The translations under genes and the position numbers were made by a program. Under the pieces are notes generated by a model. It searched no databases and was not told the DNA's origin. It was given only the letters and a program-made list of their open reading frames with translations. 64,000 nt of DNA. Source: a virus (Duplodnaviria; Caudoviricetes). The stretch is from IMG/VR virus record IMGVR_UViG_3300044856_000190, positions 2,195-66,194 of that record; one strand, written 5' to 3'. Below, one piece after another: positions 22,118 to 57,817 of the stretch (within the stretch, counting starts at the first letter, position 1; every line of letters starts with the position of its first letter).

Positions 22118-23947
22118 TTGAAAAGGAAGTTCGACATAATGATCATTAATACGAATAATAAAATTAGGACAAATCAAAGATCATCAAAGCCGTCAAAAGT
22201 AAAAATAAATTTAGATGAAAAAACTTACAATATTCTTTGTAAGTATGTATTACAAGACCCATCAGTTGTAAGAATGGAGCATCTGGTAAATTTGAAAAAG
22301 ATGATGAGTGTAATAGACCATTCATCTTATGAGAATAATCCTGAATTAGTAAAAAGAGTTAATTTTATTAATAAAGCTTTGGAAGCTAGATTAGATTTTA
22401 ATCTTACAGACCCTGATATGATTATCGTTCATACAAATGGTGGTCTTACATTTAAAGTAGATTTCTTAGACTATGATCATATTTCAATGGGAAACGATGC
22501 TGTTGAATGGTGTCATAGAATGGTTTCTCAAACTTTACAATATGCATTCATTGATTATAATATCAATGATTTGCAAGATATCATAACTCGTTATAAAACA
22601 ACTGATTATGGTAGTAGAGGAAATATTATTGATGACTTAGAAAGAGAAATTGATATTATTAAGAATGGATTCAGACAAGTAAAAACTGAAAGTAATATCA
22701 ATGACGTTACATTTTCTCTTAGAGATGGAGCATTTGAATCAGCAATTACAGATACATATAATATCGTAACAAGTCCATCAAGAAGATTGATGACTGGTAT
22801 GCAAGGACTTAATGAAATGGTTGGTGGTGGATTTGAGTCTGGTCGTGTTTATATGTTTCTTGGAACATCTGGAGTTGGTAAATCAGTTACATTGTTGAAT
22901 TTATTATATCAGCTCAAGATATATAACAAACAATACAGAGTAAAAGACCCAACAAAGAAACCTTGTGTTGTATTATTAACAATGGAGAATACTGTAGTAG
23001 AAACATTAACTCGTCTATTTGATATGGTAGTTGATAATTCTCATGGTATGCAGAATTATGATCTTCAAGATGTAATTCGTTTATTAAGAGAAGAGGGACA
23101 GTTAAAGATTACAGAGAGTTCTCCAATTGATATTGTAATTAGATATAAAGCAAATAAATCTGTTGATACAAGTTATCTGTATACTTTATATGATAATTTG
23201 GAAGACCAAGGATATGAACCTATTTGTCTTATCCAAGATCATATTAAAAGAATTAGGTCAGTTGATGCAAATCAAGATATTCGTATTGAATTGGGAGATA
23301 CAGTCAATGAATTTAAAGTATTTGCATCTACAAAACAGATACCAGTAATTACAGTATCACATTTGAACAGAGATGCAACTAGAGTATTGGAAGATGCAGC
23401 TCGTAGAGGAAATCAAGATAATGGTAGATTATTAGGAAAATCTAATATTGGTGAATCATTATTGATGATTGATAATATTGACTGTGCAATGATTCTTACA
23501 AAAGATTATGATAGAGATGGAAATTGCTATATGACTTTCAATAGAATTAAGATGAGAGATAAAGGTTCTAAGAGAGAATATATAGCTCAGCCATTTGTAA
23601 TGGGTAATGAGATTAGATTAATCGAAGATCTCTATGGTCCTGCACAGTTTAAAGAATCAATTCATTGTGAGGTATTTAATAATACTGGTTCTATGGCATT
23701 GAGTGGTTCATCAGCTATGACTCCTGGTCAAGTTGTTGAAGCTATTCCAAAAGATGGAGATAATGCATTTGCTAAGAAAGAGTTCTTTAAACCAGAATCT
23801 ATTACAGAGAATACAAATATGGAAGATCAAAGAAATGCATTACAAGAGCAATTATCTGGAATTATGCAAAGTAATGTTATTCCATTCTCTCCAGTATTCT
23901 TTAAACCAGTATGTCCAGTACATTTTCAGCTTAAAATTATGGTCTAG
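22118..23947 (+). CDS. dnaB: DnaB-family replicative helicase (start may be ATG 22139)
   Basis: Walker A GTSGVGKS, TMEN, IQDHI, VSHLNRD, IGESLLMIDNID and KMR motifs. Confidence 0.9.
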   Translation: MKRKFDIMIINTNNKIRTNQRSSKPSKVKINLDEKTYNILCKYVLQDPSVVRMEHLVNLKKMMSVIDHSSYENNPELVKRVNFINKALEARLDFNLTDPDMIIVHTNGGLTFKVDFLDYDHISMGNDAVEWCHRMVSQTLQYAFIDYNINDLQDIITRYKTTDYGSRGNIIDDLEREIDIIKNGFRQVKTESNINDVTFSLRDGAFESAITDTYNIVTSPSRRLMTGMQGLNEMVGGGFESGRVYMFLGTSGVGKSVTLLNLLYQLKIYNKQYRVKDPTKKPCVVLLTMENTVVETLTRLFDMVVDNSHGMQNYDLQDVIRLLREEGQLKITESSPIDIVIRYKANKSVDTSYLYTLYDNLEDQGYEPICLIQDHIKRIRSVDANQDIRIELGDTVNEFKVFASTKQIPVITVSHLNRDATRVLEDAARRGNQDNGRLLGKSNIGESLLMIDNIDCAMILTKDYDRDGNCYMTFNRIKMRDKGSKREYIAQPFVMGNEIRLIEDLYGPAQFKESIHCEVFNNTGSMALSGSSAMTPGQVVEAIPKDGDNAFAKKEFFKPESITENTNMEDQRNALQEQLSGIMQSNVIPFSPVFFKPVCPVHFQLKIMV

Positions 23948-23965
23948 GTATTACTACCTAGACCA
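23940..23965. terminator. bidirectional terminator
   Basis: TGGTCTAGGTA/TACCTAGACCA between dnaB and the gp53-like gene. Confidence 0.75.
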
Positions 23966-23971
23966 TTTTAT

Positions 23972-24406: not shown

Positions 24407-24429
24407 ACAAATCTCCCCTTTCATGCAAT

Positions 24430-24441
24430 TATAAACATGTT
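24430..24441 (-). promoter_or_regulatory. AACA-N6-TA promoter of the gp53-like gene
   Basis: AACA TGTTTA TA. Confidence 0.65.
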
Positions 24442-24543
24442 TTTGATAATAAACTATATACATGAAAGGAGAAATTGAATATGAATACAGGATAATTAAT
24501 TTTTAAAAATGAATGATACTCATTAGTAATGGAGGATTAAGAA

Positions 24544-26658
24544 ATGAAATATAATCAAAAATATCATTACCCATATGAAGACCTGTGTAATACAGGTCAT
24601 CAAACAATCTATACGAAAGATTTAAATCAAGATAATATTAATAGTCATTTTAATTCGATTATTAATATTTTAAAAGATGGTATTGAAACACCTGAAGTTC
24701 AAGCGATGATGCTTCATGTCGTGTTCGAAAATGATACTGACTTAGATTTAAGTATATTCGATTATACAATCAATCTAATGTTTTGGCAATTCTGTACAAT
24801 TGTGAATCATCCAATCTGGGATGTACATGTGATATTCCCAGAAGATATTACAAAGAAATATATCAAAGAGTATATTGATAATATATTCGTTGATAAGTAT
24901 AGAAAGAAACTTCCATTTATAGAACTCAATCAAACGATTGATGCAGTAATTGGAAAGTTTAGAGATCTTAGACAGTTCCAGATGTATTTGGCAAATACAT
25001 TAAATCTTGAGGATACTATAGATCTTATGAATAAGTATCCAGAGTTCAATGAAACTGTTCACTTTGATACAACTGGCATTCCTCTTGAAGATATTAAGGA
25101 AGCTGGTATGGCAGCTACAAATAAACAGATCAGATATATAAAGAATTCTGATCACTGTTTAAGAGATTCATTCAGAACTGGTGAAGCAATATCTCCAAAG
25201 CAGTATATAGAGGTTGCTGTTAATATTGGATCAAAGCCAGATGGACAAGGATCAGTATTCCCTCATCCAATCAAGCATTCATTTATGAATGGTGGTTTAC
25301 AATCAGCAGAAGAAATATGTATTGAATCTTCTGTAGGTCGAGTAGCTCAGATTTTACAGAAAACAAACGTTGGTGAATCAGGTGCGTTTGCTAGACAGCT
25401 TGAGCTGAATAATCAGGATACTTTCTTAAATCCAGATCCAAACTATGTCTGTGATACACATAATTTCGAAGAGATTACTATTGAGAATGAAACTATGCTT
25501 AATATGTATGATCTGAGATATTATAGAACCAATCCAAACGGTATTGATAAGAAACTCAATGCTAAGAAAGATAAAAATCTTATCGGTCAACGATTATTCT
25601 TTAGATCTCCAATGACTTGTGCAAGTGCTGCAAGAGGACATGGTATTTGCTATAAGTGTTATGGTGATCTTGCATATGCTGAGCAGGAAATCAATATTGG
25701 ACAGATTGCTGCAGAAGGATTATCTTCTATCTATACACAGATCTTACTTTCTGCAAAGCATCTTCTTGAATCTCTTGTTATTAAAATGGAATGGACAAAG
25801 CAATTCTATGAATTGTTTACTATTACTTTTAATACAATTGCTTTAAAGGAGAATGGTACTTATCGTGGATATAAATTGATTATCGATGATGATATTAAAT
25901 CTGAGGAGGAGATAGATGATATAGAATATAATTACTATATCAATAGCTTTATTGTAAGAACTCCTGATGGAGAAGATATTAAAATCAAAACAACAGAAGC
26001 TGATAATATTTATATTGAACCAGATTTCTATCAATATATTATGTCAGTTCAACCTGAGGATGATAATTCTGATGAATCTTACTATGTAGAATTAAACATG
26101 GTAGATTTAATGGATTTCCCAGTTCTGTTTGTAGTTCAGGTAAGAAATAATGAGTTATCTGCAACTATGGATAAGATTAAGAAATTGATAGATAATAAAT
26201 CTATTATCGAATCTTATGATCGTAATTCAATTCTGAAAGAATTTATTACGACAAATATTCAAGGTAATATCAAATTAAATGCAGTACATTTTGAGGTATT
26301 ACTTATGAATCAGATTAGAGCTGCTGATGATGATCTTGATGTTCCTGATTGGACAATTCCAAATGCTCCATACAAGATTCTGACATTGAGTAAATCATTA
26401 TCAGAAAATAGATCAATCACTGTTAGATTACAGTCTAACAAAGTTTCAAAAGCTCTTTCAAATCCACAAAATAGATTTATCAGTAAACCTTCGATGACTG
26501 ATATCTATTTCATGGAACAGCCTCAGGAATATTTAGATCCAGAAATGATCTCAGATGAGTATGTTCCGAAGAGTGATAAAGAAGAAGAAGTTATCCAACC
26601 AATTAGTTTTGATAATCCAAAACTTAGAGTTGGTAGAAGAATAGGTAAAAAGAAATGA
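24544..26658 (+). CDS. rpoC: split multisubunit RNA polymerase beta' C-terminal subunit (704 aa)
   Basis: Bridge-helix-like KTNVGESGAFARQL; Zn site RSPMTC...ICYKCYG; trigger-loop-like NIGQIAAEGLSSIYTQILLSAKH. Confidence 0.9.
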   Translation: MKYNQKYHYPYEDLCNTGHQTIYTKDLNQDNINSHFNSIINILKDGIETPEVQAMMLHVVFENDTDLDLSIFDYTINLMFWQFCTIVNHPIWDVHVIFPEDITKKYIKEYIDNIFVDKYRKKLPFIELNQTIDAVIGKFRDLRQFQMYLANTLNLEDTIDLMNKYPEFNETVHFDTTGIPLEDIKEAGMAATNKQIRYIKNSDHCLRDSFRTGEAISPKQYIEVAVNIGSKPDGQGSVFPHPIKHSFMNGGLQSAEEICIESSVGRVAQILQKTNVGESGAFARQLELNNQDTFLNPDPNYVCDTHNFEEITIENETMLNMYDLRYYRTNPNGIDKKLNAKKDKNLIGQRLFFRSPMTCASAARGHGICYKCYGDLAYAEQEINIGQIAAEGLSSIYTQILLSAKHLLESLVIKMEWTKQFYELFTITFNTIALKENGTYRGYKLIIDDDIKSEEEIDDIEYNYYINSFIVRTPDGEDIKIKTTEADNIYIEPDFYQYIMSVQPEDDNSDESYYVELNMVDLMDFPVLFVVQVRNNELSATMDKIKKLIDNKSIIESYDRNSILKEFITTNIQGNIKLNAVHFEVLLMNQIRAADDDLDVPDWTIPNAPYKILTLSKSLSENRSITVRLQSNKVSKALSNPQNRFISKPSMTDIYFMEQPQEYLDPEMISDEYVPKSDKEEEVIQPISFDNPKLRVGRRIGKKK

Positions 26659-28138: not shown

Positions 28139-28702
28139 ATGGGCGCAGTTTATAATACAGAATTTACAATTAAAACAAAAGAAGGAACGGAAGATAAAAT
28201 ATTTGACAGGCTGAATCAGTTTATTGAAGCTGAGGATAGTAATAGTGTTGAATTTAAGATTCCTAAGATAAAAGCTAATGGAAACAATATGGAGACATAT
28301 TTGGATCTATTGAAGTTATTCTTCTCTACTTGTTCAAAACCAGCAAAAGATATTACTGTTGAAAGTAACGGATGCTTGTCATATAATAATGACTTTTGCG
28401 CAACATATGGATGGCTTGGTGTTATAGAAAACGTAATCCATATGATAGCAGAATACCTTGAAGATTATTCATATTTCTATATCGAGGCAGATAGCGCATG
28501 TGAATTATATGTCGTTAAGAATGGTAGTATTACAGAATATGAACCATCTTTTGATAATATTGAGAAATTATCTAGAACTCTTTCTATTACTTATGGTTCT
28601 GAAGTTAAAAGTGATGATGATTTAATTGTCACTAAACTGGATAAAGATTATGATAATACTCATATTCTTCAGGAAGGTGAATTAATAAAAGAAAATGATT
28701 GA
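28139..28702 (+). CDS. hypothetical protein (187 aa)
   Basis: SD AAGGAG; terminator at 28739-28766. Confidence 0.7.
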   Translation: MGAVYNTEFTIKTKEGTEDKIFDRLNQFIEAEDSNSVEFKIPKIKANGNNMETYLDLLKLFFSTCSKPAKDITVESNGCLSYNNDFCATYGWLGVIENVIHMIAEYLEDYSYFYIEADSACELYVVKNGSITEYEPSFDNIEKLSRTLSITYGSEVKSDDDLIVTKLDKDYDNTHILQEGELIKEND

Positions 28703-28782
28703 TTTTACATGTATTTAAAACTAAAATCAATTTAATAATAAAGGATAGTGCAAAAACTATCCTTTATTTTTTGGAGGAACAA

Positions 28783-30405
28783 ATGGAAGATAAAATTATA
28801 GTAAGTAATACTCATATCTGTATTACAAATTATACTATGGGTGATTGTGAACAGCTTGAAAATATTTTCAGAACCTTTGATCCAGTTACCCACAAATTTA
28901 ATTCATTTGGAATGTATTATGATAAAGATAATAAGAGATTGTATATTCCTGCTGGTATTGATTTATGGAGAATCAAGAGAATGTTTGAGCAGAAATATTA
29001 TAAACGTGAGATACATCACAAATATCAAACTATTGATAATATTTTGATTAAAGCAAAACCAAGAGATGACGAACAAAGACAAGCTCTAAGATTCATGTGT
29101 GGAGTTAATGAATATTCTGACAATTATGAATTAGCTCAATTATCACTAAATCTAAATACTGGTAAAGGAAAAACATATTGTTCAATTGCATCTATTTGCT
29201 TTTTCAGAATTAAATCTGTAATAATTACTGGATCTACAACATTATTAAATCAGTGGGCTCAAGAAATTATGAGATATACAAATCTTACTATGAAAGATAT
29301 TCTATTTATGAATGGATCTTCTGTTTGTAATATGGCTTTACAAGGGAAATCAAGAAAAGCAAAAGAAGCAAAGATATTCTTAATTACTCATGGTACTTTA
29401 AGATCATTTGCAGAGACTTATGGATGGGATAAAATTAATCTTTTATTTGAAGAATTAGGAATTGGACTTAAATTCTTTGATGAAGCTCATACAAACTTTG
29501 CTAATATGCTCATGATTGATTTCTTCACCAATGTATTTAAGACATTCTATGTGACAGCAACTCCAGGTAGAAGTAATTGGAGAGAAAATAATATCTTTCA
29601 AATCTCATTAAAGAATGTACCTAGTATTGATTTATTTGATGAGAATAATGATCCTCATACTTCTTATGTGGCAATCAAATGGAATTCTAGACCTACTCCA
29701 CAACAGATATCTGCTTGTAGAAATATGTATGGATTAGATAGAATGAAATACATTGATTATATTACAAAGCAACCATCATTCTATGATATGCTTAGAGTCA
29801 TTATGGATCTGGTTATAAAATGTAAAGGAAAAATTCTGATGTATATTGGAACTAATGATGGTATATTAAGAGTATACCACTGGATAGGAACTAATTATCC
29901 AGAATTTTTAGGGGATATTGGTATATTTACATCATTACTCGATAAATCAGCAAAGCTAAAAGAAAAAGAAACAAAGAAATTATTATTAACAACAACTAAG
30001 TCAGCTGGTTTAGGAGAACATATTCCTGGATTAAAAATGACAATTGTTTTAGCAGAACCTTTTAAGTCTGAGATTATTGCAAGGCAGACTTTAGGTAGAA
30101 CTAGAGATCCTAAGACTATGTATGTAGAATTAGTAGATCTTGGTTTTAAATATACTCGTAAATTCTATAATGATAAATTACGAGTATTTAATAAATATGC
30201 AACAGATGTTTCTGATACTCATATTGATCAATATGAGTTGGAAAGAAGATCTAAAATATTAGAAGAGGAAAGAATGAAATATCAAGAGTGTCCATTCGTT
30301 CTAGATGATAAAAGATTTGATTTTGATAAGGTATTACCTAAAAAGAAAGATCAAATTAATCAAAATGAACCTATGTGTCCTGTATTTTTCGTTCCGAAAA
30401 AGTAA
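28783..30405 (+). CDS. SF2 (UvsW/DEAD-like) helicase
   Basis: Start reassigned to ATG 28783 (SD GGAGG); PRDDEQ, NTGKGKT, FFDEAH, TATPGRS, SAGLGEHIPGL and QTLGRTR motifs. Confidence 0.9.
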   Translation: MEDKIIVSNTHICITNYTMGDCEQLENIFRTFDPVTHKFNSFGMYYDKDNKRLYIPAGIDLWRIKRMFEQKYYKREIHHKYQTIDNILIKAKPRDDEQRQALRFMCGVNEYSDNYELAQLSLNLNTGKGKTYCSIASICFFRIKSVIITGSTTLLNQWAQEIMRYTNLTMKDILFMNGSSVCNMALQGKSRKAKEAKIFLITHGTLRSFAETYGWDKINLLFEELGIGLKFFDEAHTNFANMLMIDFFTNVFKTFYVTATPGRSNWRENNIFQISLKNVPSIDLFDENNDPHTSYVAIKWNSRPTPQQISACRNMYGLDRMKYIDYITKQPSFYDMLRVIMDLVIKCKGKILMYIGTNDGILRVYHWIGTNYPEFLGDIGIFTSLLDKSAKLKEKETKKLLLTTTKSAGLGEHIPGLKMTIVLAEPFKSEIIARQTLGRTRDPKTMYVELVDLGFKYTRKFYNDKLRVFNKYATDVSDTHIDQYELERRSKILEEERMKYQECPFVLDDKRFDFDKVLPKKKDQINQNEPMCPVFFVPKK

Positions 30406-30425
30406 TAGTTAATTTTAGTTATAAT

Positions 30426-30497
30426 TATATATTATAATGATGAATTAATGATACTGGACCTCTTCTAATTAAGAGGTCTTAAACGATACTTCATCAT
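30426..30497 (+). promoter_or_regulatory. early-type promoter plus nested 5' hairpin
   Basis: TATATATTATAAT; ATGATGAA...GACCTCTT/AAGAGGTC...TTCATCAT. Confidence 0.6.
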
Positions 30498-30526
30498 ATT
30501 ATAATTATAAAAGGAGGAAACTATTT

Positions 30527-32062
30527 ATGATGACACTTTCAACTACAGACGTTTTATTCACAGCTTTTGATGCCCTTATTAATGCAGATACGGTGTATAA
30601 TATCGTAAAAACTATTTCTGATGCAGAGGAGAAAGCAAGTCTTCAAATCGAAAATGTATGGGCTGAGAAAAGACCAGAAGAAGAGAAAGCTAAAGAGGAA
30701 CCAAAGAAAGCAACAGAAGAGAAGAAGGCTACTAAAGAGGAGCCAAAGAAAACAGAAGAGGAAAAGGCTAAAGAGGAATTAAAGAAAGCCTCAAAAGTAG
30801 AATCTGATGTTATTTCCCAGGAGGAATTTGAGAAGATCACAAAGGTAGCAAATGAAAAGAACCAGAACCAGTTTGATCTTATTGAGAAATATAATAAGAC
30901 AAATGCATGGGTTAACTATGCAAAGTATTATGTATCTCATGAGGATGCAAATCTGATTGCAGCTGATGATGAAACTCAGGTCTTTGTAAATGGTATTGCT
31001 AATCTTACTGGATATGGAGTTATGTATGAGAAGGCTCCTATTGGAAATATTAAGCAGTATGATCCAAATTTGAATCCATCTTATGATAACCAGTCAACAA
31101 GATTTTTAGTTTGTTATGAGGAATTGCTTGCTAAGTTGATGGATTTAGAATTCAGGAATAAAGTAAAATCAACAAAGGCAGCAAGATCTGTAAATACAGT
31201 AAAAGAAATTGAGATTCAGAAAGAAGCAGAGTCTGATAAAGTTGTATCTAGTGCAGCTGGAAAAGCTAGAGTTGATGAGGATGGATTTATTCATCCAATA
31301 TTCTTTAAGAAAGATGGATCTGTTGATGTTAAAGAGCCATCTCTAGCAGAAACTAAGAAATGTGGAGATGGAATATCTGAAACATTGTTCAACAGATTGG
31401 AGGATGCATTTGTAAGTCTGCTAGCAGATGTTCCGTATTACTACACAACAAAGAATGGATATATCGAGTTGAATGTAGTGCGTAAAGATTGCTTCAATGC
31501 AGTTGATACCTATATTGTAGATTCGGGTGTTATACTTGGTGGTACAAGAATTTCTATTCTTGGATCTTTTGTTAAGCCTGATGGAAATTATGATACAATA
31601 TTCATTGATGTTAAGAAGCATCCAGAGATCACATCTTGCATTCTCTACTCTAAGTTCTATCAGATTACTCCAGAGCAATTCATGGAATGTGTAAAGGATT
31701 TCTTCAATGATACTACAATCTATAGATATATAGATTTTGGAAACACAGGATGGTTCGATGCTTTGGATGAGAAAGATCGCAAGACACTAGAGAATGATCT
31801 TAGTATCATTGTAAAGGATTCTTTAAATGGTACAAGAGCTAATCATGCAGATGGAGCAAGATTCAGATTTGAAGAGTTTAAAGATGTAAACAACTTTAGT
31901 CTGGTTTCTGATGATAAAGTAATATCTCCACTTTGTGCATTTGGAGATACTTCTGTAATTATCTCTAAGAATCTGTCTTATAAGGTTTCTGGAGATGATA
32001 TTATTCGTACTTGTTCAGGAGAGCAGACGAATATCAATCTGAAAGATGCAAAAACAGCATAA
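30527..32062 (+). CDS. abundant early hypothetical protein with K/E/A repeat linker (511 aa)
   Basis: SD AAGGAGG; early promoter and 5' hairpin; EEKAKEEPKK-type repeats near the N-terminus. Confidence 0.75.
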   Translation: MMTLSTTDVLFTAFDALINADTVYNIVKTISDAEEKASLQIENVWAEKRPEEEKAKEEPKKATEEKKATKEEPKKTEEEKAKEELKKASKVESDVISQEEFEKITKVANEKNQNQFDLIEKYNKTNAWVNYAKYYVSHEDANLIAADDETQVFVNGIANLTGYGVMYEKAPIGNIKQYDPNLNPSYDNQSTRFLVCYEELLAKLMDLEFRNKVKSTKAARSVNTVKEIEIQKEAESDKVVSSAAGKARVDEDGFIHPIFFKKDGSVDVKEPSLAETKKCGDGISETLFNRLEDAFVSLLADVPYYYTTKNGYIELNVVRKDCFNAVDTYIVDSGVILGGTRISILGSFVKPDGNYDTIFIDVKKHPEITSCILYSKFYQITPEQFMECVKDFFNDTTIYRYIDFGNTGWFDALDEKDRKTLENDLSIIVKDSLNGTRANHADGARFRFEEFKDVNNFSLVSDDKVISPLCAFGDTSVIISKNLSYKVSGDDIIRTCSGEQTNINLKDAKTA

Positions 32063-32072
32063 GGAGTAACTA

Positions 32073-32849
32073 ATGATGAGAAATGATGATTTCGAATCAT
32101 ATGACAGAATAACAGATACTTTGATGTATCTCAATAATGATATCACCTTAAATTTCACGGTTACTTTTGCAAAAAAGAACCGTGTTGGTGGTAGACAGTT
32201 TTATCATTATGAAACTGAATATGAGGCATCAAAGTATTCTGCTCGTGTCAGATCTATAAAAAGAAATATGACATATTTCTTCGTCATAGACAATAAGCAA
32301 GACTTCGGAAATGGGTTTATATTAAGACCTATGGATGTAGAAATGCTAAACAGGATAATAGAAATGCAAATCCTTCCTTGGTACTTTGATGCTAATAAAA
32401 GAGCATTTCAAATGATAGATGATAAATTGGTTCTAGGACAATATGAACCTGTTATCTATGCTCAATCACAAGCAAAGTATTTAAGATTCGATCCAGTTGT
32501 ATATTCCTATGAAAATGGCACTTTTAAAGAAGGTATAAAGATAGAAGTGAATAAATATGGAGTAGCAACATTGGATATCGATAAATTCATGGGATTTGTA
32601 AATATCTTAAAAACTGATATGTATTGTGCTGCAGCTGAGCTATCTACTTATACGAAATGTCCACCATATGGAATTAATCCATATAGGAGATCAGGATTAG
32701 GTGGAGGTAAACCAGCAGATACATGGGGTAATACAGACCCTACAACAGATAAATCAAATTATACTGTTGAAAGAGACAACAATAATCCAGAAGCAAAAGG
32801 CTATGCAAAAAATAGCTTTCTGGAAAATGCTAAAAAGAAAGGACAATAA
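32073..32849 (+). CDS. hypothetical protein (258 aa), possibly nucleic-acid binding
   Basis: SD AAGGAG; aromatic/basic beta-rich core plus low-complexity tail. Confidence 0.65.
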   Translation: MMRNDDFESYDRITDTLMYLNNDITLNFTVTFAKKNRVGGRQFYHYETEYEASKYSARVRSIKRNMTYFFVIDNKQDFGNGFILRPMDVEMLNRIIEMQILPWYFDANKRAFQMIDDKLVLGQYEPVIYAQSQAKYLRFDPVVYSYENGTFKEGIKIEVNKYGVATLDIDKFMGFVNILKTDMYCAAAELSTYTKCPPYGINPYRRSGLGGGKPADTWGNTDPTTDKSNYTVERDNNNPEAKGYAKNSFLENAKKKGQ

Positions 32850-36531: not shown

Positions 36532-36580
36532 AATATCTTAAGGTTATATATTATAAATATGAAAAGAGGTGAATAAATTT

Positions 36581-49143: not shown

Positions 49144-51366
49144 ATGGCTGGATTAAATTTCTCACAGCAGATTGAAGAGAATACAAAAAATCTTAAATCA
49201 ATGGAACAAGTTTTAGGAAAAGGTCTCATGCAACCATTCAACGGTTGTAATGCAGGTGCTCGAAAGTTAATGCATAATGTGCATAGAGATCATGTGTTTC
49301 CATTGATGAATGGTGAGAAAGCTATACTTGAAACTGGATATGAAATTAGATTCGGAGATTATTCTAGTTCTATTACTAGAGCAGATTCTAATTATCAGGT
49401 AGTAGCAAAAATCAGCAAATTTTCATTTGCACCAAATCATCACTATTGGATTATAGTAAAAGATATGAAAACTGGAGTTCTTGATGTTGTAGAAAGAATT
49501 TCATATCATTATATTACAGAGTCTTATGGATATTTATATAATAATGAATATCTTGACAGCTTAAATGTAGGAGATATAATTCCTGAGAATACAGTTGTTC
49601 AGAAATCATTAGCATTTGATGAATATAATAATAGAAAAGATGGAGTAAACTTTAATGTTGCTTATCTTGCATTGGATGATAATATGGAGGATTCGATGGT
49701 ATTCTCTGATGTAGCAGCTGGTAGACTTACATCACCTTTGATTAATCCAGTAGAGATTAAGATAAATGATAATGATATCCCCCTTAATATTTATGGTGAT
49801 GATACTCATTATAAGATTATTCCAGATATTGGAGAGGAAGTTGTTGATGCAAACTTAATTGCATTAAGAAAGGAAAAGAAAGAAGAATCATATTTTACTC
49901 AATCTATTAATAGATTAAGAGATATTATGATATCTGATGAAAAGAAGAGAGTTCATGGTCGTGTTATCGATATTAAGGTTTATTGTAATAATCCTGAGAT
50001 TCTCGATTCTCACTATTATAGCCAACTTAAGATGTACTATGAGGAGAACAAGCGATACAATAAGGAAATTGTACAAGTGCTGTTACCATATGCTTCATCA
50101 AATGTAAAGATGACTTATGATCTTCAGAAATTATTTGCTACTGCTAAGAGAGTAATGAATAATGATCCATATATCGATAAGAGACCTTTCTCTAATATTT
50201 CTATTGAGATTGATGTATTAGAGGAAAAGCAAATGGAAGCTGGAGATAAGAGTGCAAATAGATTTGGTGGAAAAGGAGTTGCATCTTGTATCTGGCCTCA
50301 GAGTATGATGCCTAGATTTAAGAATGGTAAAGGTGAGTGGGAATATGTTGATGTAATCTTCAACAGTTCTACTATGGTTAACCGTGAAAATGTAGGACAG
50401 TGCTTTGAGTTATCAATTAATCATATTGGTAGTTCTATAATCGATAAGATCATTTCTGATAATATTCAATTAAAAGAAGCTTATGAAATGATTCTGAAAT
50501 TTATTAGTGTACTTGCACCTGAACAGGCAGAATTTATGAAAGAGAAATGTGAAAAAATGAGCTATGATGAATTAGCATTCTTCATTGGTTCTATTGTAAA
50601 TTCTGGATCTATTCATCTTTCTATGAAGCCATTGACAGATGTAATGACAATTGATAAGTTAGCACAGTTGTACAAGATTTTCCCTTGGGTAGAACAGACA
50701 GAAGTTGAAGTTCCATTAGTTGGTTCTGATGGCAATATTCGTTATGTACCTGCTCGAAGAAGAATAGTTGTAGGTAAACAGTATCTATTCAGATTAAAAC
50801 AGTTTGCAGAAGAAAAATATTCTGCCACATCATTATCTGCTACTAATATTAGAAACGAGAATACTAAGTCTAGAGTAAAGAAAGATTTCAGAGAGCTATA
50901 TCCAAATACTCCTATTAGATTTGGTAATATGGAGACAAATAATATGGCTCATATTGGTGTAGAACCATTGATAGCTAATATGATGATTCATAGTTTATCT
51001 CCTCAAGGACGAAGATTAGTAGAACAGATGTATACTGGAGATCCATTCCATATTGATATCAAGCTTGATAGTAATTCTAAGAATAGATCTGCAGAAATTG
51101 CAAATACATATCTGAAAGCAATTGGTAGACGATTAATGTTTATCAAGAAACCAAAAGATATTACAAAGATTACGGTTAGTCCAGTTTCATTTGATCATGA
51201 TATCTATAAAGTTCCTGTATACTTTATACCTGAAAATCAGAGAAAGAGTTTTGATTTTGAGAAAGACTTTAAAGAGCGTGAAAGAATTGAGAAGCTGAAA
51301 AAGAAACGTCATGCAGTTAGTCCTGTACGTTTCGAAGGTATAGATCGTCGTAGAGGCAAAAGATAA
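49144..51366 (+). CDS. rpoB: split RNA polymerase beta C-terminal subunit (740 aa), probably non-virion RNAP
   Basis: GVNFNVAYLALDDNMEDS, GDKSANRFGGKGV, DVIFNSSTMVNRENVGQCFE, GKQYLFRLKQ and PIRFGNME motifs. Confidence 0.92.
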   Translation: MAGLNFSQQIEENTKNLKSMEQVLGKGLMQPFNGCNAGARKLMHNVHRDHVFPLMNGEKAILETGYEIRFGDYSSSITRADSNYQVVAKISKFSFAPNHHYWIIVKDMKTGVLDVVERISYHYITESYGYLYNNEYLDSLNVGDIIPENTVVQKSLAFDEYNNRKDGVNFNVAYLALDDNMEDSMVFSDVAAGRLTSPLINPVEIKINDNDIPLNIYGDDTHYKIIPDIGEEVVDANLIALRKEKKEESYFTQSINRLRDIMISDEKKRVHGRVIDIKVYCNNPEILDSHYYSQLKMYYEENKRYNKEIVQVLLPYASSNVKMTYDLQKLFATAKRVMNNDPYIDKRPFSNISIEIDVLEEKQMEAGDKSANRFGGKGVASCIWPQSMMPRFKNGKGEWEYVDVIFNSSTMVNRENVGQCFELSINHIGSSIIDKIISDNIQLKEAYEMILKFISVLAPEQAEFMKEKCEKMSYDELAFFIGSIVNSGSIHLSMKPLTDVMTIDKLAQLYKIFPWVEQTEVEVPLVGSDGNIRYVPARRRIVVGKQYLFRLKQFAEEKYSATSLSATNIRNENTKSRVKKDFRELYPNTPIRFGNMETNNMAHIGVEPLIANMMIHSLSPQGRRLVEQMYTGDPFHIDIKLDSNSKNRSAEIANTYLKAIGRRLMFIKKPKDITKITVSPVSFDHDIYKVPVYFIPENQRKSFDFEKDFKERERIEKLKKKRHAVSPVRFEGIDRRRGKR

Positions 51367-51973: not shown

Positions 51974-54337
51974 ATGAATATAAAGTATTTATTTGATCAA
52001 TTAATGGTTGGAAATGCTAGTGTTCTTACAGTAGAGAATATTCAGTTCTTGAATAATGAAGCTTTGAATATTTATAATATTCCAGAGTTAAATAAAGAGC
52101 AAATTGAAGAATTGAAACAGATTATTATGATCTGTAATGTGCTGTACAATAGAACAGATATGACGGTATTACCAATCGAAGATGGATTTTATGATTTACT
52201 TCTTGAGAAGTATAAGAAGTATGATCCACATTTTCAGGTAGGATCTGCAGTTGTAGAGTTTAGAGATTTCATAGAGAATGATCTGGATAATCCACGAAAG
52301 ATTGCAGAGTGTCCAATCGTATTTTATGATAATCCAGAAAGAGATGAAACTCATCAGTATGTGAGAGATCATATTATGATTAAAGGACAATGGTTTGTAG
52401 ATAGAAGAGATTTCTATCTGTGTCCAGTTACATTTGATAGCCAGTATATTGGAAAGAGAAGTCATAATACAAAGCATAATCATCCTACTCTTGTAGGAAC
52501 TTTGGATAAGTGTAAATTTGTATTAAATCAAGATGCTATTGATGCTGGAGTATTTGATGATCCAAACGTTGCTATTTTGGAAAGAGATTTCTTTCAAGAG
52601 CATATTAAGAAAGGAATTATTAGACCAGATCAAGAATTAGAGATTGTAGTTGAATTGAAATATGATGGTATTTCTGTAGAAGCAGATTGTGGAATGGAAG
52701 TTGTATCTGCAAGAACTAGAGGAGATACTGGTATTGGAGAAGCAAGTGATATTACTCCAATTCTAAAAGGATATCAATTTAAACATGCTCCTGGATATAT
52801 GATTGGTGAAGAACCTGTTGGAGTTAAGTTTGAAGCTATTATTACAAAATCTAATTTATATAAGTTCAACCAATTACGTGGAAGAAAATATGCAAATGGC
52901 AGAACTGCAATTATTGGATTATTTGGAGCTTCTGATGCATATAAATTCAGAGATCTGATTACTCTTGTTCCATTAGCTTTGGATAGAGATCAATTCTATT
53001 TCCATTTAGATAATAGAATGCAGGAGATTGAGATATTGAATCAATTATTTATATCTCATGGAGAACCTTTGAGATATTGTTATTTCAAAGGAACTATTCC
53101 AGAATTATTGTATTATATTAAAGCATTTGCTGATGAGGCTAAGATTGCTAGAGATCAATTAGATTTCATGTATGATGGAATAGTTGTATCTTATTTGGAT
53201 GAGAATATAAGAGCAAAGTTAGGCAGAGTAAATTATATCAACAAATATTCTGTAGCTGTAAAATTCAATCCATTAGAGAAACAAACAATATTCAGAGGAT
53301 ATACTTACGAAATTGGGCAGCATGGTAATATCACTCCTATGATTCATTATGATCCAGTTGAATTCTTAGGAACAATTCATACAAAGTCTACTGGATCTTC
53401 TTTAAAGAGATTCCAGGATCTTCAATTAAAGTATGGAGATTTCATTAATGTAACTTATGTGAATGATGTAATGCCATATGTATCAAGAGTAGAATGTGAG
53501 CATAATAGGAAAAATCCAAATCCAATTGCTGATGTAATTGATAAATGTCCTGTATGTGGAACAAAATTAGTTATATCAGATTCTGGAAAATCTTTATTAT
53601 GTCCAAACCCTGAATGTCCAGGAAGATCTATTAAACGTATGGTAAATATGTTTGATAAGTTAAATATAAAGGGATTTGCGGAAGCAACTTTTAAGTTGCT
53701 GAAATGTGATCACTTTGCTAATCTATTTAAATATAATAGAGAAACGCTAATAAAAATATTAGGAAATGCAGATGGTAATGCATTTGCTGATGTACGGCAA
53801 TCTTTATTAAATGATCCTATACAGGATTATATGATTATGGGAGCTTTAGGATTTACTTCTATTGCTCGAAAGAAATGGCAATCAATTTTACAGTCAATAA
53901 CTGTAAAAGAGTTATTTGATATGTATCTCGATTGCCTTGAAAATGGTAGTTCGATGGAATATGTATTAGGATTAGCTATTCCTAGTATACGAAATACAGT
54001 AACTGCAAAAACAATTGCTAATGAATTTGATTTCTTTGCATCAGATATCTGTTTCATTTTGGATAATTGTAAATTGATTAATTCTAAAGGTCAAGCTGAT
54101 TCAGTAAAAGGTCAGATTAGATTTACAGGATTTAGAAATCAACAGTTAAAGGAACAACTTTGTAATGCAGGGTATGATGCAGATGATTCTTCTGTAACAA
54201 AGAAGACAAATATTTTATTAATCCCATATGAAGGCTTTAGTAGCTCTAAAGTTACAAAAGCTCAATCTATTCCAGGTATCAAGATTATACCTATCAATGA
54301 CTTCTTAGCTAACATGGGAAACTATGTTGAAGTTTAA
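51974..54337 (+). CDS. ligA: NAD-dependent DNA ligase
   Basis: YDLL..Y (domain Ia), ELKYDGISV, RTRGD, DGIVV, AVKF, OB fold, CPVCG...CPNPEC Zn finger, BRCT-like FTGFR. Confidence 0.92.
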   Translation: MNIKYLFDQLMVGNASVLTVENIQFLNNEALNIYNIPELNKEQIEELKQIIMICNVLYNRTDMTVLPIEDGFYDLLLEKYKKYDPHFQVGSAVVEFRDFIENDLDNPRKIAECPIVFYDNPERDETHQYVRDHIMIKGQWFVDRRDFYLCPVTFDSQYIGKRSHNTKHNHPTLVGTLDKCKFVLNQDAIDAGVFDDPNVAILERDFFQEHIKKGIIRPDQELEIVVELKYDGISVEADCGMEVVSARTRGDTGIGEASDITPILKGYQFKHAPGYMIGEEPVGVKFEAIITKSNLYKFNQLRGRKYANGRTAIIGLFGASDAYKFRDLITLVPLALDRDQFYFHLDNRMQEIEILNQLFISHGEPLRYCYFKGTIPELLYYIKAFADEAKIARDQLDFMYDGIVVSYLDENIRAKLGRVNYINKYSVAVKFNPLEKQTIFRGYTYEIGQHGNITPMIHYDPVEFLGTIHTKSTGSSLKRFQDLQLKYGDFINVTYVNDVMPYVSRVECEHNRKNPNPIADVIDKCPVCGTKLVISDSGKSLLCPNPECPGRSIKRMVNMFDKLNIKGFAEATFKLLKCDHFANLFKYNRETLIKILGNADGNAFADVRQSLLNDPIQDYMIMGALGFTSIARKKWQSILQSITVKELFDMYLDCLENGSSMEYVLGLAIPSIRNTVTAKTIANEFDFFASDICFILDNCKLINSKGQADSVKGQIRFTGFRNQQLKEQLCNAGYDADDSSVTKKTNILLIPYEGFSSSKVTKAQSIPGIKIIPINDFLANMGNYVEV

Positions 54338-54424: not shown

Positions 54425-55036
54425 ATGTCAGAAGTATTATCAAAGTTGTTTGATACAACTTTACCAGCAAACTACAGCAAGGTATTATTCGAGGAGAAAA
54501 ATCTCGATCTTGCACCAGAGCATCTTGATAAGATGTTTGATACAGTATTTACTGGATCAGCAAACTTATTAAATCATGCAAAATCTCTAAATGCTCCAAC
54601 AGCATTAATCTTCAGAGATCTTAAGCAGAATGTAGTAGCAGTATCAGTAGTACAGTTCTTCCCAAATGAAGATGCAAGTAAGCCAGGTAACTGGAGTCTT
54701 ATTTGGTCATTTGATGAGAAGGATATTCCAGAGAATGCACTGAAGATCGAGTTCTCAGATCCACAGTCACATACTTATTTCAGAGCAGTTGCAGGTGAGA
54801 AGTATGGTATGGGATTCAAGAACGTTGATTGTCTTGTAAACTGTATCATTTGTGCTTTTGAGCAGCTTAAGAAATGGCTTGATGAGAATGCAGCTGAGGA
54901 TAAGACAGTTGGAATCGAATGTGATGGACTGTTTAAGGCAAGAGTTGCTATTGAATCTAATGAGAAAGTATTCGCATTAGAGGCTGATGGTGAGATCAAG
55001 AACCTCATTAAAGATGATGCAGCTATTGAGAAATAA
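54425..55036 (+). CDS. abundant early hypothetical protein (203 aa)
   Basis: SD AAGGAGG; early promoter and 5' hairpin; C-ending (TTC/AAC/ATC) codon preference typical of highly expressed genes. Confidence 0.8.
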   Translation: MSEVLSKLFDTTLPANYSKVLFEEKNLDLAPEHLDKMFDTVFTGSANLLNHAKSLNAPTALIFRDLKQNVVAVSVVQFFPNEDASKPGNWSLIWSFDEKDIPENALKIEFSDPQSHTYFRAVAGEKYGMGFKNVDCLVNCIICAFEQLKKWLDENAAEDKTVGIECDGLFKARVAIESNEKVFALEADGEIKNLIKDDAAIEK

Positions 55037-55064
55037 TTAATCATTTCTCAGAATAAAGAATAAT

Positions 55065-55175
55065 AACCAGGAGTTACTATAATAAGTACACAAATAACAT
55101 AACAAAAATCTAATCCCTTCTTCAGTTATGTCATACTTACCCATTATTGTGTACTTATTAAAAGTGCTCCTGGTT
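55065..55175. ncRNA. candidate structured RNA / extended hairpin (about 111 nt)
   Basis: Nested inverted repeats AACCAGGAG/CTCCTGGTT, TAATAAGTACACAA/TTGTGTACTTATTA and ATAACATAAC/GTTATGTCAT. Confidence 0.5.
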
Positions 55176-55230
55176 TTAGTCTTAAAAACTATCCAAATAT
55201 TCTTTTTTGTTTTTAAAGGAGAAAATTCTA

Positions 55231-55947
55231 ATGGAAATGAAACCTGCTTATTTGTCTGTCACTAAATCTGCAGCGAATGGACAAGTGTATGACGTAATAT
55301 CATATGATGAATATGGTAAAAATTTCGATATGTATAATGGTAGAACAGATGTTGCTGTATCTGCTAATTGTAGAGGAAAAGATATTATATTACCTATAAA
55401 AGGTAAGTATTCAGGAAATCCAATTAGTCCAGGTGTATATGATGCTGGATGTGTTGATTTCTTTAATTATCCAGATGAAACTACTATTGAGAGATATGTA
55501 CCAACTAATACAGTGCATATGTCTAATAGAGAAGATATTGGTAATTTGATTAAATCTGGTGAAATTGCAAAAAGACTTGATGAGCCTTTCATTACAACTC
55601 CAGATAATATTACAAATATTCCTATTAAGGAAACAGATCAACCAGAAATGGTAGCTTTGAAAACAGCACTTAATTCAAAGCATATTGATATTGATAAATA
55701 TGCTGGTAGATTTGGAGATAATTATCCAAATGATAAACGTCAGCTTAAATTAGAGAGTGCAACTCTCAAGATTATTAAACGATTCTGTGAGAACTGTGAT
55801 ATGGATGCGGTATTAATTCTTAAAGATAGAGATAAAGATGTACCTAATCCTATGAATAGAGAAATTAGAGTATCATTAACAAAACCTATTGATATGGATA
55901 ATATTATTCATCTTAATAGAAATGATGATGATACTGAAGATATATAA
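55231..55947 (+). CDS. hypothetical protein, possible C-terminal HTH-like domain
   Basis: Start reassigned to ATG 55231 (SD AAGGAG). Confidence 0.7.
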   Translation: MEMKPAYLSVTKSAANGQVYDVISYDEYGKNFDMYNGRTDVAVSANCRGKDIILPIKGKYSGNPISPGVYDAGCVDFFNYPDETTIERYVPTNTVHMSNREDIGNLIKSGEIAKRLDEPFITTPDNITNIPIKETDQPEMVALKTALNSKHIDIDKYAGRFGDNYPNDKRQLKLESATLKIIKRFCENCDMDAVLILKDRDKDVPNPMNREIRVSLTKPIDMDNIIHLNRNDDDTEDI

Positions 55948-56002
55948 TTTTTCTTTTTAAAATTTTGTAATAATATATTATTACAAAGATTTGGAGGATA
56001 CA

Positions 56003-57817
56003 ATGAATCAGTTAAATCAAGCACAATTTATGAGGGAATTCAATGAAACTCATAGAGAACAATTTAACCCAGAGCTCTTTAAAAGAGATAATGATGAAAT
56101 TGTAGAAGCTATTCGTGAAGTAGTAACTTCTTGTCAGAGAGATAAGTACTATACTCTAAAACTTTTATCATTTACCCCAATTTATGATTATGAGGAAATC
56201 TATAATACTCTTAGGGAGCATGATGAAAAACGTAAGAAAAAGAATGATAAATCTCCAAATGTATATGACTTTATCAATATTCGTGATACAGATATGATTT
56301 TGATTAAAGTTATTTGGTTGATACGTCATAATGGAATTGAACGTCAGGATGATAATGGAAAAACAGTCGATGTCGTTAATCCAGAAAAGGAATTAGAAGT
56401 TCTGATAGCAGTTCCAAGATTTACTCGTAATTATTATTTCAAATTAAGTGGAAATTACTATGCTACAATTTTCCAGATTGTGGATGGTTCTACTTATAAT
56501 AACTCTACTGCTAGTAATAGTAAGGTAGATACAGTAACTATGAAAACAATGTTTATGCCTATTCGTATCTTTAGAGGATTCAATACTCTGACAGATGTAG
56601 GAACAGGTGAACAGATTAAGCTGATAGAATATCAGTCTATCATTTTCAATAATACAGTAAACTGTATTTATTATATGCTTGCTCGATTTGGATTATATGG
56701 TACTGCATCTTTCTTAGGAATTCGTTGTGTATCAATTACACAATCTCCAGTATTAGATCCAAATTATTATTGCTTTGAAAAGAATGGTATTTATATCAGT
56801 TGTCCTATATCTTGTTTTCAGGATGCTATGGTTCAGAGTTTTGTTGGTACTATCTATGATGGTATTATGAAAGAATCAAATATCAATGTAATCTTTGATC
56901 AGAGATTCTGGTTAAGAAATCTTGGTATGGCATTTAAAAATGCAAGTGTAGATAAAGGTCTTTTCGTACTTGATTCTGTAGAAGGAATCTATGATAATAT
57001 TACAAAGCAGGATCTTCATCTTCCAGAATGTGATAAATATGATATTTATTGTGTGTTGAGATGGCTCTTAAGAGAATTCTCTAAATTAAGAGTAAAAGAA
57101 AATGTTGATGTAAGAACGAAGAGGATTCGTATTCCAGATTATGTAGCTGCTGTTTATGCAAATAAGTTGAATAAAGGTATTCATAGAATATCTGACTTAG
57201 GAACAAAGGTTACATTAAAGAAAGTAGAGCAAGCTATTTATACAAATCCAATGCTGGTATTACAGAAGATTTCATCTGCATCAATGTCAAACTTGGTATC
57301 TTATCGAGACCTTGTAAATGATATGGATGCTATGGTTGCATTAAAGTATACTTATAAAGGTATCTCTGGATTAGGTGAGGATGGAGCTAGTATTCAGCCA
57401 ATCTATCGTTATGTAGATCCAAGCCATGTAGGTATTCTTGATCTTGATGCATCTTCAGCTTCTGATCCAGGAATGTCTGGAATGATTTGTCCTATGGCAA
57501 AGTTGTATGGTTCCGATAATTCATTCTCAGAATATAATGAACCTAATTCTTGGAGATCAGAATTTAAACCAATTCAGGATAGTTATTTTGAAGGAAAGGT
57601 ATCTCCTGTTGTATTTAATAATAATTCTCCTAGAATGAATATGCAGTTTTATCCTAATAGAGATAGAATTGTTCAGGAAGAGTTGGATATCAATCGAGTA
57701 ATCTGTCCAGTAGAAAATCTGAATGATCCAAGTATTACTTATACTTGCTCAGAGGCAAAACTGGAACAAATGCAAGTAGAAAAACCAAAATCTTTATTTA
57801 CGATTAGAGATAATTAA
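56003..57817 (+). CDS. rpoB: split RNA polymerase beta N-terminal subunit (604 aa), probably non-virion RNAP
   Basis: Start ATG 56003 (SD GGAGG); VP......F.LSGNYY..IFQIVD, and fork-loop-like YRYVDPSHVGILDLDASSASDPGMSG (compare R.VH.SHYG..CP..TPEG..G). Confidence 0.85.
   Translation: MNQLNQAQFMREFNETHREQFNPELFKRDNDEIVEAIREVVTSCQRDKYYTLKLLSFTPIYDYEEIYNTLREHDEKRKKKNDKSPNVYDFINIRDTDMILIKVIWLIRHNGIERQDDNGKTVDVVNPEKELEVLIAVPRFTRNYYFKLSGNYYATIFQIVDGSTYNNSTASNSKVDTVTMKTMFMPIRIFRGFNTLTDVGTGEQIKLIEYQSIIFNNTVNCIYYMLARFGLYGTASFLGIRCVSITQSPVLDPNYYCFEKNGIYISCPISCFQDAMVQSFVGTIYDGIMKESNINVIFDQRFWLRNLGMAFKNASVDKGLFVLDSVEGIYDNITKQDLHLPECDKYDIYCVLRWLLREFSKLRVKENVDVRTKRIRIPDYVAAVYANKLNKGIHRISDLGTKVTLKKVEQAIYTNPMLVLQKISSASMSNLVSYRDLVNDMDAMVALKYTYKGISGLGEDGASIQPIYRYVDPSHVGILDLDASSASDPGMSGMICPMAKLYGSDNSFSEYNEPNSWRSEFKPIQDSYFEGKVSPVVFNNNSPRMNMQFYPNRDRIVQEELDINRVICPVENLNDPSITYTCSEAKLEQMQVEKPKSLFTIRDN

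Follow-up and report, generated by a model that had tools for sequence, protein, structure and literature searches.

The recruitment of many enzymes by one hub that reads a short peptide motif is an established principle. In phage T4, the similar hydrophobic C-termini of gp43, gp55 and gp33, which are held on variable unstructured linkers, bind gp45; they are interchangeable and link late transcription to replication (PMC2988020). The PCNA-interacting protein (PIP) box (Qxx[ILM]xx[FY][FY]) and the beta-clamp motif (QL[SD]LF or QLxLxL) serve many enzymes of replication and repair, ligase and polymerases among them, which use them in disordered termini to reach one pocket. Eukaryotic and viral client-recruiting motifs include FGDF, which binds the NTF2-like domain of G3BP, and RVxF, which docks on PP1. 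Here we describe a peptide tag of the general form Φ-Φ-[S/C/K/Q]-P-[V/I]-x-F, with a broad core P-Φ-x-Φ and hydrophobic residues at positions -2 and -3, that is appended to replication and transcription enzymes in the uncultured phage IMGVR_UViG_3300044856_000190. The stretch that we analyzed (the window) covers 64 kb of this 66,194-bp viral contig and has a G+C content of about 29%. We searched the literature and found no earlier account of a tag of this kind for jumbo phages.

We counted the motif in 70 non-overlapping open reading frames (ORFs; 20,684 amino acids) and compared the counts with per-protein shuffles (n = 2000). P[VI]xF occurs 21 times against a shuffle mean of 4.5, which agrees with the roughly five chance matches that an initial annotation of the window had estimated. 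The stricter forms [SC]P[VI]xF and [SC]PVxF occur 12 and 10 times, against shuffle means of 0.36 and 0.14, and none of the 2000 shuffles reached the observed count of any of the three patterns. To guard against post-hoc pattern choice, we also scanned all patterns of four fixed residues with a span of 4-6. SPVxF ranked first (7 versus 0.11, P = 4.6e-11), CPVxF by itself came fifth, and PVxF was the highest-ranked pattern of three residues. The shuffles and the unbiased rank together rule out chance or composition, and the enrichment over shuffled controls, on which the initial annotation had staked its proposal, is therefore confirmed. Four or five of the P[VI]xF matches are conserved elements of protein cores (TPIRF in beta-C, DPVEF in the OB domain of LigA, FPVLF in beta'-C and NPVGF in Dda), and these account for the chance expectation. 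The motif copies are spelled with differing codons (TCT/AGT/TCA, CCA/CCT, GTA/GTT, TTT/TTC). The repeated unit is therefore the peptide and not a DNA element, selection acts at the peptide level, and a DNA-level repeat or a promoter inside the genes is ruled out. Overall, the tag behaves as a short linear motif does: it is short, has few fixed positions and is over-represented relative to composition.

All copies quoted in the initial annotation, including the looser HPIFF, YPVTF and SPIAF, are in frame. The relatives used for comparison come from four related IMG/VR lineages, among them G001 (complete, 200,990 bp, with terminal repeats; G002 is the same phage), G003, and G004 and G005, which are one phage. 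The carriers and motif sites in the window are as follows.

22118-23947 (+): DnaB-like replicative helicase, 609 amino acids (Pfam divDNAB/DnaB_C at residues 169-495); in-frame C-tail copies SPVFF at 23888-23902 and CPVHF at 23912-23926 (+).
24544-26658 (+): non-virion RNA polymerase (RNAP) beta'-C piece, 704 amino acids, whose best match in phage AR9 is the annotated non-virion beta' C-terminus; in-frame C-tail copy QPISF at 26596-26610 (+).
28699-30405 (+): superfamily 2 (SF2) helicase, 568 amino acids (Pfam ResIII); CPVFF at 30376-30390 and a degenerate second site, CPFVL, at 30289-30303 (+).
36569-37156 (+): 195-amino-acid protein without a Pfam or PHROG match, an N-terminal carrier; SPVEF at 36608-36622 and a weak NPLVF at 36644-36658.
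49144-51366 (+): non-virion RNAP beta-C piece, 740 amino acids (Pfam Rpb2_6 at residues 146-563); tail of 79 amino acids with three copies, SPVSF at 51178-51192, VPVYF at 51211-51225 and SPVRF at 51319-51333 (+).
51974-54337 (+): NAD-dependent DNA ligase (LigA), 787 amino acids (Pfam adenylation domain from residue 207); CPIVF at 52310-52324 and CPVTF at 52421-52435 (+), in an insertion of about 65 amino acids between domain Ia and the adenylation domain.
55991-57817 (+): non-virion RNAP beta-N piece, 608 amino acids; tail copy SPVVF at 57602-57616 and a second site, CPVENL, at 57704-57721.
59045-59536 (+): Zn-ribbon protein, 163 amino acids, a probable carrier; YPVTF at 59252-59266, immediately before the first CxxC.
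63838-64000 (+): start of a family-B DNA polymerase, truncated where the contig ends (exonuclease part); the tail of its G001 orthologue is tagged.
45904-45918 (+): SPVNF, an uncertain instance, at position 109 of 191 in an ORF without relatives in G001-G005.
18436-18450 (+): SPIAF, an uncertain instance inside a 129-amino-acid ORF without orthologues.
9837-9851 (+): SPVIF, an uncertain instance near the N-terminus of an 87-amino-acid ORF with a weak G001 orthologue.
33570-34292 (-): beta fragment of a second RNAP, 240 amino acids (PHROG RNA polymerase beta), without P[VI]xF; a negative comparison.

The YPVTF of the Zn-ribbon protein may be part of the fold instead of a tag, and the SPVNF at 45904-45918 cannot be told from chance. 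The carriers are confined to DNA and RNA enzymes, namely replication and repair proteins (DnaB, family-B polymerase, LigA, SF2 helicase and the RusA resolvase found in G001) and three pieces of the non-virion RNAP. Among the window and G001 proteins examined, no tag was found on gyrase, UvsX, Dda, SbcCD, primase, structural proteins or the pieces homologous to the virion RNAP. The non-virion beta'-N piece and the gp226-like subunit are untagged as well, and the G001 orthologues of two AR9 subunits annotated as virion RNAP contain no P[VI]xF. The 240-amino-acid beta fragment of the second RNAP would presumably belong to the virion enzyme.

To place the phage, we relied on its RNAP genes. Among GenBank phages, the best matches of the beta-C piece come from PBS1 and AR9, both of which infect Bacillus, and share only about 30% of their residues with it; the AR9 match is annotated as the non-virion RNAP beta C-terminus. 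The labels of the beta-C and beta'-C pieces are taken from the AR9 annotation, and the gene order beta-C, LigA, beta-N is common to the window and AR9. Split beta and beta' genes are present for the non-virion RNAP and for a second RNAP. These features are those of the AR9/PBS1-like (Takahashivirus-related) jumbo phages with two split multisubunit RNAPs, to which the phage can be assigned by sequence comparison, and its deep divergence from AR9 points to a separate uncultured clade.

When compared to their AR9 orthologues, the carriers are 48-112 amino acids longer, and every motif copy lies in the part that cannot be aligned. DnaB has 609 amino acids versus 561 in AR9, where the alignment stops at residue 513; beta'-C has 704 versus 631, the SF2 helicase 568 versus 477 (91 fewer in AR9), beta-C 740 versus 665 (the AR9 protein lacks the tail), LigA 787 versus 681 (106 fewer in AR9), beta-N 608 versus 496 with an alignment that stops at residue 517, and the exonuclease part of the family-B polymerase (PolB), measured in G001, 662 versus 554. 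The non-aligning parts are C-terminal tails, except in LigA, where the extra sequence is the internal insertion, and all copies also fall outside Pfam domains. Compared with the cores, these extensions contain two to three times as much proline and have a somewhat more polar composition. The initial annotation had placed most copies outside the catalytic cores and had named burial in folded cores as evidence against a tag; in the proteins with AR9 orthologues, all copies are outside the alignable core. We used this criterion in place of distance to the nearest end, since several copies are 60-110 residues from an end yet still outside the AR9-alignable core. A test for location within 60 amino acids of an end was not significant in the window (P = 0.28) and was significant in G001 only.

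PVxF is not enriched in the AR9 proteome. Since AR9 lacks both the enrichment and the tails, inheritance of the tag from AR9-type ancestors is ruled out, and tails and tag are therefore an innovation of the uncultured clade; the earlier remark that no such motif is known for AR9/phiKZ-type phages still holds. The DnaB-like helicase of AR9 (NC_031039 3583-5268) ends in DSGIPF, similar to the C-terminal tip (D-I-P-F) of the bacterial single-stranded DNA-binding protein (SSB), which may serve this cultured phage for docking of another kind.

Among the related lineages, the motif is retained, as the initial annotation had required of a true tag, while its flanks vary. In an alignment of six beta-C orthologues the tail diverges, whereas its three copies keep their P and F with few exceptions or none, with a swap of S and C at the third copy. 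The same pattern of conserved islands is seen in DnaB, beta'-C, the helicase, the 195-amino-acid protein, LigA, beta-N and the Zn-ribbon protein. In particular, the beta'-C island I-[QE]-P-I-x-F-[DS]-N-P-K-[IL]-R-V-G-R is kept in G001 and G004, as are both LigA sites. In the 195-amino-acid protein, SPVEF, NPIEF and KPVIF align across three lineages, and the second copy is not conserved; the Zn-ribbon site reads SPIYF, YPIYF and QPIEY in three lineages. Some sites have moved. The SF2 helicase of G001 has PICPIEF in the place of CPVFF, and in that of G004 a full CPLEF aligns with the second site, which reads CPFVL in the window. The beta-N tail of G003 has a full second site, CPIMF, and a decayed first one, the reverse of the window with its SPVVF and decayed CPVENL. 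Such shifts of copies between neighbouring sites in beta-N and the helicase are the turnover expected of short linear motifs, and the tag thus shows both conserved islands and turnover.

The complete relative G001 is enriched in I.PI.F (10 versus 0.6) and adds further carriers: the family-B polymerase, the RusA resolvase at its N-terminus, and several proteins of no known function. The polymerase orthologue (73923-75911, 662 amino acids; PHROG DNA polymerase and Pfam DNA_pol_B_exo1) has SPIEF and SPIIF in its C-tail. In two other lineages the polymerase tail has SPVRF and KPVTF (L072) or copies of a PF[KR] type (L073). Two G001 carriers, at 104164 and 105378, were considered as the AR9 primase and gp226 and rejected for lack of similarity; the true G001 orthologues of these proteins lie elsewhere in the genome and are untagged.

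At a larger scale, a collection of 5.8 billion proteins contains over 2,200 homologues of DnaB (E <= 1e-20), many of them on contigs of about 250 kb. We surveyed the last 70 amino acids of the 120 closest orthologues (54-77% identity). At least one P[VILM]x[FYW] is present in 94 of the 120 and two in 66. The tail logo is [PIV][IV][CKS]-P-[IV]-x-F-[IVMD], and the remaining tails have near variants such as QAITF, PAVSF and PVVSF. The initial annotation had also taken S or C at position -1 as part of the signal. This is true within the window, as the counts above indicate, but not across the clade, where C, K, S or Q can take that position.

The strongest evidence for a common partner comes from the way in which the tag changes its spelling. 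We surveyed beta-C as representatives at 50% identity and retrieved the gene neighbourhoods of five distant lineages (L062-L066). Downstream of the conserved IGRRLxFxK, tails are still present at identities as low as about 34% and contain 2-4 copies of a lineage-specific motif. The five lineages spell the tag PFxI, PWxI, PYxΦ, A[VI]xF and NPFx[KR], and in each of them the spelling of the beta-C tail recurs in the LigA insertion.

L062: beta-C tail TPFTI, HPFTI, TPFEI, CPFYV and TPFTI; LigA VPFTI and SPFTI.
L063: beta-C tail PWGI, PWKI and PWKI; LigA PWRI and PWSI.
L064: beta-C tail PYIL, PYNF, PYTM and PYIL; LigA PYVM (and PYDN); beta-N tail IPYEQL; two further neighbouring proteins end in PYNYIL and PYINII.
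L065: beta-C tail PAVLIPAVLF, DAITF and DAVRF; LigA PAVVF; Zn-ribbon protein AIFF, in the same place as YPVTF.
L066: beta-C tail NPFKK twice, NPFVK and KPFKK; LigA NPFVK and NPFRR.

Three of the five distant lineages have their own variant at both LigA sites, and the other two at one site. When six spellings are counted in six genomes over the tails of beta-C and beta-N and the LigA insertion, the resulting matrix is essentially diagonal. Among the few counts off the diagonal is P[VI]xF in LigA of L063 and L064, where it is within the conserved IP[VI]xF that closes domain Ia. The Poisson P-values for finding the spelling defined by beta-C in LigA of the six genomes are 2e-4, 2e-4, 2e-6, 0.04, 0.15 and 8e-7. 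Close relatives differ as well: V occupies position +1 in 13 of 16 copies in the window, in 4 of 21 in G001 (P = 2.4e-4, Fisher test) and in none of 6 in G004, so that the change from V to I in G001 is concerted across carriers as well. Unrelated enzymes are thus respelled together, which is most simply explained by one reader that evolves with the tag and would not be predicted by independent functions. The initial proposal of a common peptide that binds one hub, modelled on the docking of PIP boxes or SSB tails, gains support from this concerted respelling in all carriers of a genome. Since the respelling is fast, the reader would be encoded by the phage rather than being a conserved host hub such as DnaN.

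Enrichment, lineage-specific extensions, conservation, site turnover and concerted respelling lead us to regard a single shared reader of the tag as very probable. Our favoured mechanism is that the tag serves as a short linear docking motif, grafted, often in two or three copies, onto proline-rich extensions that are probably flexible, and that one phage-encoded, co-evolving receptor would read all copies. This receptor would most likely be a DNA-associated platform working like a sliding-clamp 'toolbelt', which would gather the tagged enzymes on phage DNA during its replication and tie late transcription to this process. That the reader is such a phage-encoded, DNA-bound and clamp-like platform we consider somewhat better than an even bet. 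The tag is confined to enzymes of replication and repair and to the late, non-virion RNAP and is absent from the virion-RNAP homologues, which fits the logic of T4 gp45.

The comparison with the described systems points the same way in function and a different way in spelling. With the gp45 clients of T4 and RB69 (PMC2988020; PMC7892883) the tag shares a short hydrophobic peptide on variable linkers that is common to the DNA polymerase and the late-transcription machinery. It differs from them in being present on RNAP core pieces, DnaB, LigA, RusA and the SF2 helicase, in using N-terminal and internal sites, often in tandem, and in a spelling that is unrelated to LDFLF and private to each lineage; homologues of gp45 and gp44/62 were undetected by sequence. 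Like the PIP box and the beta-clamp motifs, it would bring many enzymes to one pocket, but the tails do not match either consensus, and those motifs are conserved across the domains of life whereas the tag is respelled between related phages. The tag has the anatomy of the FGDF and RVxF motifs, with 4-7 residues of which two or three set the specificity, a context that is presumably disordered, tandem copies, and sites gained or lost close to one another. Those motifs are eukaryotic and of fixed spelling, whereas here code and reader would evolve together in a phage. The tag is also common to a replicative polymerase (PolB of G001, with two tail copies), LigA, RusA, helicases and RNAP pieces, as is typical of clamp-client motifs. 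Judged by sequence, therefore, it appears to work like a motif of this kind, yet it is outside the PIP, QL[SD]LF and LDFLF families.

Several observations weigh against a clamp-like reader. Neither a gp45-type clamp nor a beta-clamp or clamp-loader was detected in the complete relative G001 (Pfam gp45-slide_C PF09116, DNA_pol3_beta_3 PF02768 and DNA_pol3_delta2 PF13177, and T4 gp44), and the polymerase group of these phages has been described by Iyer et al. as lacking a classical sliding clamp (PMC7824862). No tail in the window or G001 proteome matched PIP, QL[SD]LF or LDFLF in a regular-expression search, which gave only scattered chance matches at internal positions. Hubs with many clients usually freeze their motif, so that rapid respelling over at least 15 clients is unusual for a clamp, and neither DnaB nor the core subunits of RNAP belong to the classical clients of clamps. 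The docking itself is a prediction from sequence. Finally, the post-polymerase protein described next has no Pfam match, no Protein Data Bank chain by profile search and no ESM Atlas match, and its alignment to T4 gp45 with hhalign has a probability of 1.3%.

Several genes encode candidate readers. The post-polymerase protein (about 193-213 amino acids) is encoded by a gene that abuts or overlaps the end of the polymerase gene after the tagged tail in four lineages (G001 75919-76551, G003 31981-32622, L072 6989-7612 and L073 6986-7567), whereas the contig of the window stops before it. It has the conserved blocks IP[IV]F[TSA]GFP and I[FY]KKKI[NS]R, no detectable internal duplication and no AR9 homologue. 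The conserved position next to the tagged polymerase tail fits a polymerase accessory factor. A complex prediction with three copies of this protein and the G001 PolB tail (residues 610-662) scored 0.02, which speaks neither for nor against binding. The second candidate, p200, is untagged and follows LigA directly.

54425-55036 (+): p200, about 200 amino acids, a candidate reader or DNA-bound platform.

This gene comes after LigA in all eight lineages examined and is specific to the clade; a hidden Markov model search found no AR9 homologue. The AlphaFold2 (AF2) model of p200 (pLDDT 92, pTM 0.87) has an internally duplicated alpha-alpha-beta-beta-beta topology. Its best VIA-align matches are inner proteins of doublet (ciliary) microtubules (Z 9.7), followed by a weaker match to single-chain IHF (Z 5.8), and no clamp is listed; relatives in BFVD are only uncharacterised gut 'Myoviridae sp.' proteins. 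From the model, p200 may be a DNA- or tubulin-associated protein.

Further candidates examined were a low-complexity Zn protein, p258 and a tubulin-like protein. Two Q/N/M/P-rich low-complexity proteins are encoded at 38294-39187 (+) and 62609-63706 (-). The former combines a helical core with a CxH...CxxC Zn site and a tail of about 120 amino acids rich in M, P, Q and G with a conserved NPFG[FY], and is kept in four lineages; it was considered as a scaffold or reader and set aside, as its AF2 model was unusable (pLDDT 40). The 258-amino-acid protein p258 (32073-32849, +) has a Gly-rich disordered C-tail and a weak ESM Atlas lead (0.81) to Whirly-type proteins that bind single-stranded DNA, so that by structural similarity it could be a phage SSB. 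A gene of the tubulin/FtsZ family (PhuZ/TubZ-like, GGTGSG, Pfam PF00091) is at G000 70-1167 (+), 1-2 kb upstream of window position 1. Tubulin genes also occur in L063 (1775-2986), L064 (4698-5852) and L066 (7191-8537), often near UvsX and beta-C, and have no AR9 homologue. The family-B polymerase is split in some lineages (G003 28642-32042 and L072 4448-6986): the first piece stops before motif A, the second ORF begins with SLYPSI and G003 has an additional ORF between them, whereas G001 has the single continuous ORF of 662 amino acids. The interruption in G003 and L072 suggests an intron or a homing-endonuclease insertion.

Different readers would account for part of the same data. The tag could be an address or import signal that is recognised by a protein of a shell, pore or scaffold and directs enzymes to a replication compartment or condensate built by the phage. 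With helicase, ligase, non-virion RNAP and polymerase, the set of carriers does resemble the proteins imported into the nucleus of the Chimalliviridae, which likewise are jumbo phages with multisubunit RNAPs and a phage tubulin (PMC13282480). The clade encodes the conserved tubulin/PhuZ-like protein that AR9 lacks, as well as the Q/M/P-rich low-complexity proteins (38294-39187 and 62609-63706), several copies per client would suit avidity-based partitioning, and a lineage-private code would keep foreign proteins out. Yet a single-sequence search with phiKZ gp54, run without a positive control, found no chimallin in G000, G001 and G003-G005, and AR9-like phages are described as lacking it (PMC13282480). 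Gyrase, UvsX, the Dda helicase, primase and SbcCD would need to enter too and are untagged, and the low-complexity Zn protein offers only a model of pLDDT 40. Moreover, we know of no phage nucleus that uses a linear signal. We therefore consider a compartment signal unlikely. We hold it to be quite improbable that the reader is a host protein (the beta-clamp, SSB or a chaperone) through which the tag would plug phage enzymes into host machinery. This view would explain why no phage clamp or loader was detected by sequence; LigA and polymerases are classical beta-clamp clients, and the hydrophobic Φ-x-F core is similar to the last positions of the hexapeptide clamp motifs. Host hub pockets are, however, highly conserved, whereas related phages differ radically in their spelling (P[VI]xF as against PFxI, PWxI or NPFx[KR]); the canonical QL[SD]LF is in no tail, and AR9, which grows on a normal Bacillus host, has no such tails.

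A single enzyme with many substrates would also produce co-variation, and the frequent S or C before P in the window and the position of the copies in exposed tails would suit a site of regulation or processing, for instance a degron, a target of protease cleavage or a place of modification at the S/C-P. The variation of position -1 among C, K, S and Q across the clade indicates that neither a nucleophile nor a phospho-acceptor is required. Moreover, the invariant positions are the proline and two hydrophobic side chains, and tandem and extreme C-terminal copies suit binding more than cleavage, which makes such a role very improbable. The pieces of a split RNAP must meet, and three of them bear tails, which could then act inside each complex in the assembly of the RNAP or the DnaB hexamer. 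The same spelling on LigA, RusA and the SF2 helicase, all of them monomeric enzymes unrelated to RNAP, respelled in step with the RNAP tails, brings this explanation close to refutation through the co-variation matrix. The same applies to a compositional or chance artefact, excluded by the shuffles and the unbiased rank, and to a DNA-level repeat, excluded by the codon variation; we regard this whole group of explanations as extremely improbable. A rather unlikely variant of the shared reader takes the rapid respelling as its starting point. Tag and reader would form a fast-evolving private addressing system, in which the code of each lineage admits its own 15-20 or so DNA and RNA enzymes to a factory and is respelled under conflict. 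The factory would be a DNA-bound platform without a clamp, a compartment positioned by tubulin, or a condensate, and respelling would shut out the enzymes or selfish nucleases of co-infecting relatives or host mimics.

The remaining gene content of the window completes the picture. PHROG and Pfam, run on about 50 window and G001 proteins, assigned the DnaB-like helicase, the SF2/ResIII helicase, the NAD-dependent ligase, GyrB, GyrA and a NUMOD4 protein between the gyrases, and further a Dda-like helicase, a UvsX-like recombinase, SbcD, an AAA_15 (SbcC-like) protein, an exonuclease and the beta fragment of the second RNAP; most other window ORFs have no family in either collection. The NUMOD4-domain protein (41882-42460, +) overlaps the start of gyrA, is kept in all four close lineages and is probably a relative of homing endonucleases. 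Between LigA and beta-N, at 55207-55947 (+), a 246-amino-acid protein, searched as a profile with its orthologues, matches two small AR9 proteins, one of them annotated as a DNA-binding protein of the XRE-type helix-turn-helix class (E 1e-4), and by this similarity it is a probable transcription regulator. Directly after beta-N, an 80-amino-acid protein (57828-58070, +) is kept in all lineages, including the distant ones (YFLYS...GTVVVNGKR..F[TS]Q), and could be a small RNAP-associated subunit.

The novelty of the tag lies in a client set that includes RNAP core pieces and DnaB, in its N-terminal, internal and tandem sites, and in a lineage-private respelling that is concerted over about 15-20 proteins. 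For the organisation of the replisome and the late RNAP in this clade, one tag on some 15-20 enzymes points to a single organising partner, toward which the tag is a ready affinity handle. It also predicts uncharacterised proteins of replication and late transcription, such as the 195-amino-acid protein and the Zn-ribbon protein. Concerted respelling over many clients is unusual for systems of hub and motif and offers a natural experiment on the co-evolution of code and reader. If the private code is real, it would amount to a linear 'zip code' by which a bacterial virus achieves subcellular or sub-genomic targeting, and code and reader would evolve in concert. Since the clade is abundant in metagenomes, the finding covers a large uncultured share of phage diversity.

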